From: a virus
Length of the DNA stretch: 64,000 bases
Virus record (IMG/VR): IMGVR_UViG_3300036770_005052
Location: 32,001 to 96,000 of that record
Reading direction: 5' to 3' (one strand)
Positions within the stretch are counted from its first letter, which is position 1, and every line of letters begins with the position of its first letter. Both the position numbers and the translations under genes were made by a program. The notes under the pieces were generated by a model, which saw only the letters and a program-made list of their open reading frames with translations, was not told the origin of the DNA and did not search any database. Positions 30,814 to 61,545 of this stretch are shown here, piece by piece.

Positions 30814-30823
30814 AATCCTCTAA

Positions 30824-31035
30824 CGTTCATCCCTTTGGGACGGAAGTAAGCCGACTCGGAACGGATCGTTCATCTATGGAAACACTCATTCTGACATGCT
30901 TACAAGCACACTTAATTGCTGGGAGAGTTCATCAACAGAACATTTCCAAACAGGTAAAGAATGATTTAATTTGGGAAATAAAACAGATCTCTCCAAAGGA
31001 GTGTAAAATAGACGCAAAAGCCGACTGAAGGAACG
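30824..31035 (+). ncRNA. double glnA-type glutamine riboswitch
   Basis: Two CGUUC/GAACG P1 sets, P2 stems UCCC/GGGA and UCUAU/AUAGA, E-loop strands GGAAGUAAG and CUGAAG; upstream of a YRGV peptide gene. Confidence 0.78.
30876..31028 (+). CDS. 50-aa peptide encoded inside the riboswitch (METLILTCLQAHLIAGRVHQQNISKQVKNDLIWEIKQISPKECKIDAKAD)
   Basis: Uninterrupted ATG..TGA frame spanning the P2 loop of aptamer 2. Confidence 0.55.
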   Translation: METLILTCLQAHLIAGRVHQQNISKQVKNDLIWEIKQISPKECKIDAKAD

Positions 31036-31676: not shown

Positions 31677-32425
31677 AACCCATTAAAGCAAAAGACCTTC
31701 TTGAACTGGATAAAAGACTTGAAGTTGTAAAACTTCAGGGATACCCAATCCCAGAACAAGTTATTTGGCAGGCAGGAAAGGGCGATTATTCTGAAGTTCC
31801 GATTCATAATGTTCCAGTTCCCAACCATCATGAATGTGGTCAGTGGATTGTTGAACAATTGTTAGCTAATGAGAGGGGGCATTGGGGTCCAATTGAGCAC
31901 CCTGGCATTACTTTTTCTTGTGCTGGATTTGTTCATAATGTTATCGTTCAGGCAAGAACTCATCGTATCGGAACCAGTTGGGATGTTCAGTCTCAGCGTT
32001 ACACTGGAAAACGTGTTCTTAAAGTTGCCAAGCGTGAACTCCATGTTGAGGAAGTCTTCTACGTGCGCCCTCAGGGGTACTACACTAACCGTAAGGGTAA
32101 GAAGTATGAATGGGCCGAAGAGCACCGACAACGCAAGTTAGAGCGCATTTTGAGTGAGTGTGAGGAGTATGCTGATTACTATGAGCAGGGTATGTGTGAA
32201 GAGCATATTCGGGATTATCTTCCTCAGGCAATTCGTCAGAACTTTGTAGTCTCATTTAATCTTCGTTCAGTTCTTCACTTTATGGATCTTCGTTCTAAAC
32301 TTGATGCTCAAATTGAAATTCAAGCACTTTGTGATGCAATTGCTCCCGAACTTCAAAAATGGTCTCCTAATGTTTGGAGGTATTATGAAGAGAAGCGTCT
32401 TCACAAGGCACGTTTGAGTCCATAA
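31673..32425 (+). CDS. thyX: FAD-dependent thymidylate synthase
   Basis: GHWGPIEH, QARTHRIGTSWDVQSQRY (ThyX motif variant), NLRSVLHFMDLR, AQIEI. Confidence 0.92.
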   Translation: MKPIKAKDLLELDKRLEVVKLQGYPIPEQVIWQAGKGDYSEVPIHNVPVPNHHECGQWIVEQLLANERGHWGPIEHPGITFSCAGFVHNVIVQARTHRIGTSWDVQSQRYTGKRVLKVAKRELHVEEVFYVRPQGYYTNRKGKKYEWAEEHRQRKLERILSECEEYADYYEQGMCEEHIRDYLPQAIRQNFVVSFNLRSVLHFMDLRSKLDAQIEIQALCDAIAPELQKWSPNVWRYYEEKRLHKARLSP

Positions 32426-60831: not shown

Positions 60832-60860
60832 TTGACAACCCTTCACAGATGCTATATAAT
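60832..60860 (+). promoter_or_regulatory. consensus sigma70 early promoter TTGACA-17-TATAAT
   Basis: Perfect consensus. Confidence 0.9.
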
Positions 60861-60885: not shown

Positions 60886-61071
60886 ATGAAAACCGAAGAG
60901 TTCTTGAGTCGTTGCGTTGTCGATACTCTTGCACGTAAATTTTACCTATATTCTAGTGAAGGTTCAGAACGAATCGTAGAATGCGAGAATGTTGACCAGT
61001 TTATGAACGTACTGGAAGTTGTGCGCACTCAGGTAAGTGAAGATTGTCTTGCATACACCGATCCTCTTTAA
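60886..61071 (+). CDS. small hypothetical early protein
   Basis: ORF directly downstream of the consensus promoter. Confidence 0.7.
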   Translation: MKTEEFLSRCVVDTLARKFYLYSSEGSERIVECENVDQFMNVLEVVRTQVSEDCLAYTDPL

Positions 61072-61074
61072 GAA

Positions 61075-61248
61075 ATGGAAGTTTTCACTGTAGATGAATT
61101 TCAAGAACATTTTGATAAACTCATGGAAAGAGTCGAAAATGGTGAACATCTAGGTATAATCAACGAAAACGGCCAGGCGACAGTGATGATGCCATACGAT
61201 GATGACCTTATACGAATACACACTGAATTAAACAACGAAGCATCTTGA
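61075..61248 (+). CDS. Phd/YefM antitoxin-like protein, 57 aa
   Basis: MEVFTVDEFQEHFDKLMERVENGEHLGIINENGQATVMMP fits the Phd pattern. Confidence 0.55.
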   Translation: MEVFTVDEFQEHFDKLMERVENGEHLGIINENGQATVMMPYDDDLIRIHTELNNEAS

Positions 61249-61273
61249 CAAAGAGTTCCAGATCCTCTATAAT
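61245..61273 (+). promoter_or_regulatory. consensus sigma70 promoter for the tRNA genes
   Basis: TTGACA-17-TATAAT ending 12 nt before the tRNA. Confidence 0.9.
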
Positions 61274-61285
61274 TGATCTGTTCAA

Positions 61286-61373
61286 GCGAGTGAGACTTGG
61301 TAGTCAGAGGAGTCTTATAAACTCTTTCCGCCAGATTAGCGGCTTTGACCTGGTTCGAATCCAGGCACTCGTA
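61286..61373 (+). tRNA. non-canonical tRNA, anticodon TAT (Ile, reads AUA)
   Basis: Acceptor GCGAGTG/CACTCGT, T arm CCTGG-TTCGAAT-CCAGG, anticodon loop CTTATAA, long variable arm. Confidence 0.7.
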
Positions 61374-61430: not shown

Positions 61431-61514
61431 AAAGCGGTGACGTAACTGGTAGCCGTATCAGACTTAAAATCTGCTGGGAGTATTCCCGTGGGGGTTCGAT
61501 TCCCCCCTCGCCCT
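61431..61514 (+). tRNA. tRNA-Leu(TAA) with defective acceptor stem, possible pseudogene
   Basis: D, anticodon (CTTAAAA), variable and T arms intact; 5' AAAGCGG does not pair with 3' CTCGCCC. Confidence 0.65.
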
Positions 61515-61545
61515 ATAAAATAAATATAAGATATGGGAAATCCCA

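Follow-up and report, generated by a model that had tools for sequence, protein, structure and literature searches.

A compact cyanophage tRNA gene with a UAU anticodon and a second, GAU-bearing hairpin in its extra arm

The window analysed here, a 64,000-nucleotide (nt) stretch comprising positions 32,001 to 96,000 of IMG/VR virus record IMGVR_UViG_3300036770_005052, is part of a 100-kb record related to T4-like cyanophages, and carries at 61286–61373 a transfer RNA (tRNA) gene with the anticodon UAU, a very small D arm and a long extra arm whose loop displays GAU. Judged by its relatives and their covariation, this cyanophage tRNA gene for the rare isoleucine codon AUA is real and strongly conserved. 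By the same kind of comparison it is the compact sub-type, with a shrunken D arm, of a very large and barely described family, carried by phages and mobile elements, of “UAU-plus-GAU” two-hairpin tRNAs, which is defined operationally in this analysis and was not found in print; the earlier note on this DNA had treated the gene as a one-off. We consider it rather probable that the product is a working elongator tRNA(UAU), a compact-core variant that decodes AUA as isoleucine for an AT-rich cyanophage independently of the lysidine enzyme TilS. The parts of the gene, with lengths in nt or base pairs (bp) and with MFE standing for minimum free energy, are as follows.

61286–61373, plus strand: compact-D tRNA(UAU), 88 nt, of the UAU-plus-GAU two-hairpin type (ARAGORN, covariation, MFE, RNAalifold)
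61286–61292, plus strand: 5′ strand of the acceptor stem, 7 bp with 61366–61372, pair 1–72 being G·U (sequence, alignment)
61293–61306, plus strand: A8 as the sole linker base, D arm GACU-UGGU-AGUC, then A21 (sequence, alignment)
61307–61327, plus strand: anticodon arm, 7-bp stem and loop CUUAUAA, with the anticodon UAU at 61316–61318 (ARAGORN, covariation, RNAalifold)
61328–61342, plus strand: extra (variable) arm, 4-bp stem CCGC/GCGG and 7-nt loop CAGAUUA (sequence, covariation)
61343–61348, plus strand: unpaired 6-nt linker CUUUGA from the extra arm to the T stem (sequence)
61349–61365, plus strand: T arm, 5-bp stem and loop UUCGAAU (sequence; 4 of 5 pairs covary among the 62 compact relatives described below)
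61366–61373, plus strand: 3′ strand of the acceptor stem and discriminator A73, CCA not being encoded (sequence)

ARAGORN, one of the checks that the earlier note had proposed, calls tRNA-Ile(tat) at exactly 61286–61373 (+), with the anticodon at tRNA position 31; all five stems pair, and the MFE fold of the single sequence is the cloverleaf (−31.1 kcal/mol, z −2.6). The anatomy described in that note, namely no U8, a 1-nt linker, a tiny D loop, a 7-bp anticodon stem and a long arm, is thus borne out by the sequence, by ARAGORN and by the MFE fold. U8 is missing because a single A joins the acceptor and D stems, the outer three pairs of the anticodon stem are G·U, A–U and G·U, and GAU (61334–61336) sits at the anticodon-like position of the extra-arm loop. 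Canonical features include the 7-bp acceptor and 5-bp T stems, the GG of the D loop, the UUCRANY T loop, and a decoding loop of seven nucleotides with Y32, U33, UAU and a purine (A37). The departures from the canonical elongator (RF00005) lie in the gathering score, which is not reached, in U8 and the second linker base, both absent, and in the D loop, which falls short of 7–11 nt.

The first viral scan prescribed nothing beyond the D arm and a portion of the anticodon stem, leaving the anticodon loop free, and matched more than 118 viral contigs, in which that loop is invariably YUUAUAA. The identical 88-mer is found in 50 contigs and in Synechococcus phage S-SRM01, and diverged copies are found in S-SKS1 and S-CRM01; the gene is unannotated in all three isolate genomes, and the 11 tRNAs that tRNAscan-SE found for the S-SRM01 paper do not include it (PMC8557907). 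The compact cyanophage-type pattern had no match in prokaryote genomes.

From the first scan and two further scans, 62 distinct compact-type sequences were gathered. In the 27-pair cloverleaf, 99.8% of their pair cells are standard, compared with 79% in shuffles and 42–47% with slid partners, although this share is inflated, because rows entered the set of 62 only if their acceptor, D, T and inner anticodon stems paired. Outside this filter were the stem of the extra arm and the outer two pairs of the anticodon stem, which pair in 99.5–99.6% of cells; in an unfiltered set, the acceptor, T and extra-arm stems pair perfectly in 20 of 22 distinct 88-mers, the remaining two being truncated remnants. 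Compensatory double changes occur in 24 of the 27 pairs, and RNAalifold on the 62 relatives gives back the same 27. From this covariation and the recovered fold it follows that the tRNA(UAU) is a real RNA under purifying selection, as the earlier note had argued from the pairing of its stems and from its promoter.

Conservation is distributed over the whole molecule. All seven acceptor pairs covary, with pair 1–72 being G·U in 57/62 and A–U in 3/62, and the D stem is paired throughout, three of its four pairs covarying (GACU/AGUC, GUGU/ACAC, GAAC/GUUC, GCAU/AUGC). The outer anticodon-stem pairs 22–42 and 23–41 form in 60 and 62 of the 62 rows, respectively. In the extra arm all four stem pairs covary while G-A-U-U-A in the loop is invariant, as are the D-loop GG and the anticodon UAU; the discriminator A73 (A88 of the gene) is at least 90% conserved.

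Two other foldings were considered and rejected. A rival helix AGAG/CUUU (21–24/59–62), giving a five-way junction, pairs in 89.9% of cells, with one pair mismatched in 20 of the 62 rows, versus 99.5% for the 7-bp anticodon stem; if the acceptor branch is read as 8/4, its eighth pair forms in no case (A·G, A·C or A·A), the 7/5 arrangement being present in 62/62. An apparent “intron” after the anticodon arm in five contigs (L018, L025, L060, L062, L110) results from a deletion by which the 5′ half is joined to the following tRNA(CAU). In contig L084 an HNH gene cuts the 3′ part of the tRNA(UAU); both kinds are remnants and not introns, and S-CRM01 holds a remnant of the 3′ half (L126:1505–1555).

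Because the extra-arm loop is constant while its stem covaries, the search for wider relatives was built on that loop. The viral scan (UAU, spacing, CCMGAUUAG, spacing, T loop, with the compact type excluded) finds the UAU-plus-GAU design in at least hundreds of viral contigs, and nearly every match listed is an ARAGORN tRNA(UAU). Most of these non-compact members have U8, A9, a 4-bp D stem, a D loop of 7–8 nt and A73, often with CCA encoded. A related extra-arm pattern was searched in 185,579 prokaryote genomes; among the matches listed, most are from Acidobacteriota, with the gene in tRNA arrays, and the others from roseobacters and further groups. Members in other phages and bacteria likewise lie within clusters or arrays of ordinary tRNAs, and those of Levilactobacillus phage ENFP1 and Vibrio phage henriette 12B8 are annotated as tRNA-Ile. 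A blastn comparison of family members with isolate phages gave mostly T-arm matches to unrelated tRNAs. The window tRNA has every feature by which the family is defined: the canonical UAU loop, a second hairpin of 3–5 bp with A-G-A-U in its loop, GAU at the centre and 5–6 unpaired bases between it and the T stem, and A73 with a weak 1–72 pair.

Some further observations concern the family and its loci. G1·U72 (or A1–U72) is conserved with A73 across the family, and G1:U72 with A73 is the identity set of alpha-proteobacterial tRNA-His (PMC7590224). The roseobacter genomes with members are those of Roseovarius, Shimia and Sulfitobacter. The acidobacterial arrays (L248–L367, e.g., L249 and L268) run Asn(GUU)-Met(CAU)-[long-armed UAU]-Val(UAC)-Ile(GAU)-Lys-Lys-Arg-Arg-Arg-Arg, mostly decode codons that start with A, and have spacers down to 1–2 nt. 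In several viral contigs (L145, L159, L171, L195, L221, L242) a transfer-messenger RNA is encoded within a few hundred bases of the family member.

The more unusual element is the second hairpin. A scan blind to the extra arm, anchored on the D arm of one normal-D subfamily and on UAU, returned 113 distinct sequences, of which 112 have a variable region of 20–26 nt. The hairpin loop in these is CAGAUAA (54) or CAGAUUA (38), the rest being shorter or longer with the same core, and A-G-A-U is present in 112; such loop statistics come from narrow, anchored subfamilies. The arm is followed by 5–6 unpaired bases in 110 of 112 family members, a stretch as long as a normal short variable loop. In the same loci, the anticodon loops of the tRNA-Ile(GAU) genes are CUGAUAA or UUGAUAA, and comparison of the loops shows that the commonest extra-arm loop differs from the anticodon loop of tRNA-Ile1 only at the equivalent of U33, which is always A.

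Over all retrieved loci (3,734 distinct tRNAs), A-G-A-U stands in the variable region of 271 of 274 long UAU tRNAs versus about 5% of the serine, leucine and tyrosine tRNAs, a comparison that speaks for the control tRNAs only, since the UAU tRNAs were the bait. Since Ser/Leu/Tyr tRNAs at these loci seldom have the motif, the extra arm is not of their type. The earlier note had cited long arms as identity elements for those three amino acids, a premise that the conserved A-G-A-U hairpin and the 5–6-nt linker do not support. In the literature searched, no description of a natural tRNA with a GAU-type extra arm was found. The converse assignment, with the GAU hairpin as the true anticodon arm and the UAU hairpin as an insert, was rejected: the GAU loop always has A33 and a stem of only 3–4 bp, and the UAU loop is canonical. 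To judge from the alignments, the GAU arm is clearly kept by selection.

Our leading guess at its role, to which we give a rather low probability, is that of a natural pseudo-anticodon, which would let any host isoleucyl-tRNA synthetase (IleRS) accept, or bind more tightly, a U34 tRNA of otherwise poor identity; the A at the U33 equivalent would then keep the GAU loop off the ribosome. Recruitment of IleRS in this manner is favoured by the archaeal leucyl-tRNA synthetase (LeuRS), a close relative of IleRS, which recognises bases of tRNA-Leu at the end of its long arm, while the approach of IleRS from the D-arm side of the tRNA speaks against it. Another point in its favour is an engineered pseudo-anticodon variable arm: with a GUG loop it sustained histidylation in E. 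coli, whereas a GAG loop in its place did not (PMC7590224).

The codon usage of the phage bears directly on the decoding role. The record is AT-rich, as the earlier note had it: its GC content is 34.7%, ATA and TTA are used at 16.8 and 29.0 per 1000 codons, and its sole tRNAs have the anticodons UAU and UAA. AUA and UUA are A/U-ending codons of the type on which an AT-rich phage depends and with which a host of higher GC content copes badly; ATA stands at 16.6 per 1000 in phage S-CREM1 versus 2.5 in its host (PMC9964418). The open reading frames (ORFs) of the record were aligned with homologues in the retrieved loci at 30–85% identity, and the residues opposite selected codons were counted.

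Query codon ATA: aligned residues I 46%, V 18%, L 10%
Query codon ATT: aligned residues I 49%, V 14%, L 10%
Query codon TTA: aligned residue L 42%
Query codon TCA: aligned residue S 42%
Query codon ATG: aligned residue M 51%

Excluding the positions at which the subject has ATA changes little (I 41% versus 46%; overall, I 41–46%, V 18–19% and L 10–11% for ATA). The profile of ATA resembles those of ATT and ATC, unlike those of TTA, TCA and ATG, and because the aligned residues match, ATA is taken to stand for isoleucine in this phage. Recoding is thus disfavoured, and a leucine- or serine-charged tRNA would be costly.

Genes near the tRNA(UAU) match Synechococcus phages S-SRM01, S-SKS1 and S-SM2, and its immediate surroundings are the following.

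60832–60860, plus strand: second perfect promoter, TTGACA-17-TATAAT, serving the DUF7294 and Phd-like ORFs (sequence)
60886–61071, plus strand: DUF7294 ORF of 61 amino acids, upstream of the Phd-like ORF
61075–61248, plus strand: Phd/YefM-like ORF of 57 amino acids, directly upstream of the tRNA(UAU) (PF02604, 28.9 bits, just below the cut-off of 29.8)
61245–61273, plus strand: consensus sigma-70-type promoter (12/12 matches)
61431–61515, plus strand: neighbouring tRNA-Leu(UAA) (ARAGORN), the only other tRNA in the 100-kb record

The consensus promoter that the earlier note had assigned to the tRNA is indeed there, with TTGACA at 61245–61250, a 17-nt spacer and TATAAT at 61268–61273. It ends 12 nt upstream of the tRNA, transcription is expected to begin some 6 nt ahead of it, and the −35 box shares bases with the stop codon at the end of the Phd-like ORF. 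No terminator-like site lies between the tRNA(UAU) and the tRNA-Leu(UAA), which are probably co-transcribed, and structure in the spacer between them is not significant (z −0.9). The tRNA-Leu(UAA) is itself irregular, with two A·C mismatches in the acceptor stem (2–71 and 3–70, in the bounds given by ARAGORN), a score of 33.9 bits as tRNA-Sec in Rfam and an MFE fold that is not a cloverleaf; it has no close relatives among the retrieved loci. The Phd/YefM-like ORF is an orphan in that no toxin gene adjoins it, tail-fibre genes flanking the pair that it forms with the DUF7294 ORF, and it is the usual left neighbour of the tRNA(UAU) in S-SKS1-like and many cyanophage contigs.

On the other side, the next gene after the compact tRNA(UAU) is a 74-nt tRNA(CAU) in 78 of the 93 contigs with enough sequence, within 10 nt in 45 (examples from loci L001–L121 are L002:1777–1851 and L001:2046–2119); the window tRNA is without this neighbour. 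In the acidobacterial arrays a tRNA(CAU) directly precedes the long-armed tRNA(UAU). If the tRNA(CAU) is elongator Met and not Ile2, the extra tRNA-Met might counter misreading of AUG by an unmodified U34.

HNH homing-endonuclease genes are inserted between the tRNAs of the cluster in S-SRM01, S-CRM01 and several contigs (L001:1636–2055; L126:865–1413; L084; L119). Bacterial tRNA-Leu is normally long-armed; S-SRM01 and S-SKS1 have a tRNA of 73–77 nt with the anticodon UAA and a short variable loop only (L001:2161–2233; L002:1991–2067). Elsewhere in the window, a glutamine riboswitch aptamer (RF01739) at 30822–30867 (+), with 36 bits versus a gathering score of 35, is the sole Rfam hit at threshold.

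As an AUA decoder, the tRNA(UAU) would be transcribed early from its own host-type promoter, together with the tRNA-Leu(UAA), and would mature through RNase P and 3′ trimming, with CCA added by the host. The first hairpin would be the true anticodon arm, its UAU reading AUA as isoleucine without TilS, and the second hairpin, in the position of the variable arm, shows the GAU of ordinary tRNA-Ile with an A in place of U33. In the cyanophage lineage the D region has shrunk to a 1-nt linker and a UGGU tetraloop, and the anticodon stem has lengthened to 7 bp in compensation. We infer from these features that the gene is expressed and its transcript processed, and that the tRNA is charged with isoleucine and serves on the ribosome.

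Several observations weigh against this decoding role. No tRNA family reaches its gathering threshold for this gene in the Rfam scan of the window, the best clan match being tRNA-Sec (RF01852) with 29.7 bits versus a threshold of 47; given this and the absence of U8, the core is unusual and may not suit every host enzyme. Six allo-tRNA(UAU) were inactive in E. coli after their anticodons had been changed to CUA, and a non-translational role was suggested for them (PMC5389517). That assay could detect only the insertion of serine or alanine, and the change destroyed the anticodon that IleRS would need. Truncated copies of the compact tRNA(UAU) exist, so the gene can be lost. It could be redundant as an AUA reader, as most of the phages carry a tRNA(CAU) beside it and a few carry a class I tRNA(UAU) next to the long-armed one. 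The aligned-residue test, finally, speaks for the meaning of ATA in the genes and not for the amino acid on this tRNA.

The earlier note had left three readings side by side: an AUA decoder, a tRNA charged with another amino acid, and a decoy. The first is supported by the canonical decoding loop, the ATA usage and the isoleucine-like alignments, and the other two fit less well. The stronger of these, possible but in our judgement unlikely, is a non-translational tRNA-like RNA, either a regulator or a decoy or sponge for a host factor that acts on tRNA-Ile (an anticodon nuclease, toxin or modifying enzyme), with the GAU hairpin as bait. The GAU loop does copy that of tRNA-Ile(GAU) (CAGAUAA/CAGAUUA versus CUGAUAA) and yet has, in place of U33, an A that makes it unfit for decoding; the core is irregular and lacks U8; and an orphan ORF of the Phd/YefM-like antitoxin type precedes the gene in this phage as in many cyanophage contigs, and allo-tRNA(UAU) genes are reported to lie in some cases near toxin-antitoxin genes, their products being inactive in the assay (PMC5389517). 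However, a bait specific for GAU would have no need of an invariant UAU loop that keeps every decoding feature, and at other loci, where the family lies among ordinary tRNAs in clusters, there is no antitoxin gene close by. The acceptor stem, A73 and the T loop are preserved like those of tRNAs that can be charged, with CCA encoded in many members, and we know of no nuclease specific for tRNA-Ile(GAU).

A missense tRNA, in which the class II body and A73 are charged by LeuRS (or by seryl-tRNA synthetase, SerRS) regardless of the anticodon and AUA is partly read as leucine (or serine), seems to us improbable. The long extra arm and A73 would suit it, and there are precedents in the nematode nev-tRNA-Ile(UAU), which is leucylated in vitro (PMC3333845), and in allo-tRNAs with leucine anticodons that insert serine in E. 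coli (PMC5389517); the six allo-tRNA(UAU) of the same study, however, gave no serine insertion. In this phage 1.7% of all codons are ATA, which behaves as an isoleucine codon in the alignments; the tRNA has neither U8 nor the large D loop of tRNA-Leu, and its discriminator is A instead of the G73 that SerRS favours. The extra arm also differs from those of the Ser/Leu/Tyr tRNAs at these loci in its conserved loop and 5–6-nt 3′ linker. The last reading, a relic tRNA gene, decaying or selfish, that travels with homing endonucleases and does nothing for the phage, as the HNH genes beside the tRNA(UAU) in S-SRM01, S-CRM01 and several contigs and the truncated copies might suggest, is close to refuted by compensatory changes in every stem over 62 sequences, two invariant loops and a perfect promoter, and we regard it as very improbable.

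AUA is the one sense codon that most bacteria read only after the essential TilS has rewritten a CAU anticodon, and AT-rich phages that infect GC-richer hosts use it heavily. This codon mismatch would be overcome in a general way by a self-contained AUA tRNA able to function in many hosts, and such portability would explain the recurrence of the design in phages of cyanobacteria, vibrios and lactobacilli and in tRNA arrays of soil bacteria. If the pseudo-anticodon reading were true, the decoder would need neither TilS nor a co-evolved IleRS, and the GAU arm, as a handle for the synthetase, would make this the first natural tRNA with an identity element in the form of a second anticodon-like hairpin, a principle so far only engineered; the unexplained allo-tRNA(UAU) class would then make sense as well. 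As the compact-D form is missed by covariance-model finders and is unannotated in S-SRM01, S-SKS1 and S-CRM01, phage tRNA censuses and codon-usage studies undercount AUA decoders. New here are the compact-D cyanophage subfamily, missing from three isolate annotations, with its covariation statistics, the aligned-residue test in this phage, the coupling to tRNA(CAU) and the link to the acidobacterial arrays.

Among known systems, TilS-independent bacterial tRNA-Ile(UAU) are, so far as is known, ordinary class I molecules whose variable loop is short and whose D arm is normal, and Tomikawa in 2018 and Uesugi in 2022 are said to have described them in lactic acid bacteria. The type is established in Mycoplasma mobile (PMC3575796); UAU and A73 are common to it and the window tRNA, as would be the reading of AUA as isoleucine without lysidine. 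The IleRS of such bacteria has adapted to U34 by co-evolution, while a phage tRNA is left with the enzyme that its host happens to have. The identity set of E. coli tRNA-Ile, attributed to Nureki et al. in 1994, reportedly includes A73, A35, U36, A37, A38, G34 or lysidine-34, and C4–G69. The window tRNA has A73, A35, U36, A37 and A38, the last not being conserved in the wider family; it has U34, A4–U69 (C–G in 14 of the 62 compact relatives), and GAU only in the extra arm. It shares A73 with tRNA-Leu but has neither the U8–A14 nor the large D loop on a 3-bp stem that mark tRNA-Leu, U8 being absent and the D loop a tetraloop; from tRNA-Ser, which has G73 and a long arm with a 3′ linker of 1–2 nt, it is set apart by the absence of G73 and by its 6-nt linker.

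The compact core has its closest parallels in selenocysteine tRNA (tRNA-Sec), pyrrolysine tRNA (tRNA-Pyl) and mammalian mitochondrial tRNA-Ser(UCN), which also have a 1-base acceptor/D linker, a very small D loop and a lengthened anticodon stem (PMC7609411); the Rfam consensus of tRNA-Sec even has the D loop UGGU. The anticodon stem of these compact-core tRNAs has 6 bp versus 7 bp in the window tRNA, and their anticodons and, presumably, amino acids differ. tRNA-Sec is further set apart by its 47-bit gathering score, a 13-bp acceptor branch (12 here) and the anticodon UCA, and tRNA-Pyl and mitochondrial tRNA-Ser have no long extra arm, unlike the window tRNA.

Nematode nev-tRNA-Ile(UAU) combines a class II body with UAU, as here, but is eukaryotic, derived from tRNA-Leu and charged with leucine, and according to the abstract has no GAU loop (PMC3333845). 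The engineered pseudo-anticodon tRNA has, like the window tRNA, an extra-arm tip that copies an anticodon loop, and is a proof of principle that a synthetase can read it (PMC7590224); unlike the window tRNA, it is artificial and was made for histidyl-tRNA synthetase, a dimeric class II enzyme that in part of the work bore an added binding domain, nothing having been shown for IleRS.

The allo-tRNA(UAU) from Acidobacteria, described by Mukai et al. in 2017 (PMC5389517; review PMC7609411), share with the window tRNA the anticodon UAU, a long-armed, tRNA-Sec-like body, a D-arm tetraloop and a lengthened anticodon stem, as well as an association with mobile DNA and, in some cases, toxin-antitoxin genes nearby. 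The portion of the 2017 text consulted has no mention of a conserved GAU loop or of phage members of this type. The allo-tRNAs have an 8/4 or 9/3 acceptor/T arrangement versus 7/5 in the window tRNA, G73 or U73 versus A73, and a long D stem versus one of 4 bp. Compared by description only, the acidobacterial members of the UAU-plus-GAU family found here, with the same phylum, the same anticodon and the same irregular acceptor, are probably the published and unexplained allo-tRNA(UAU) group.

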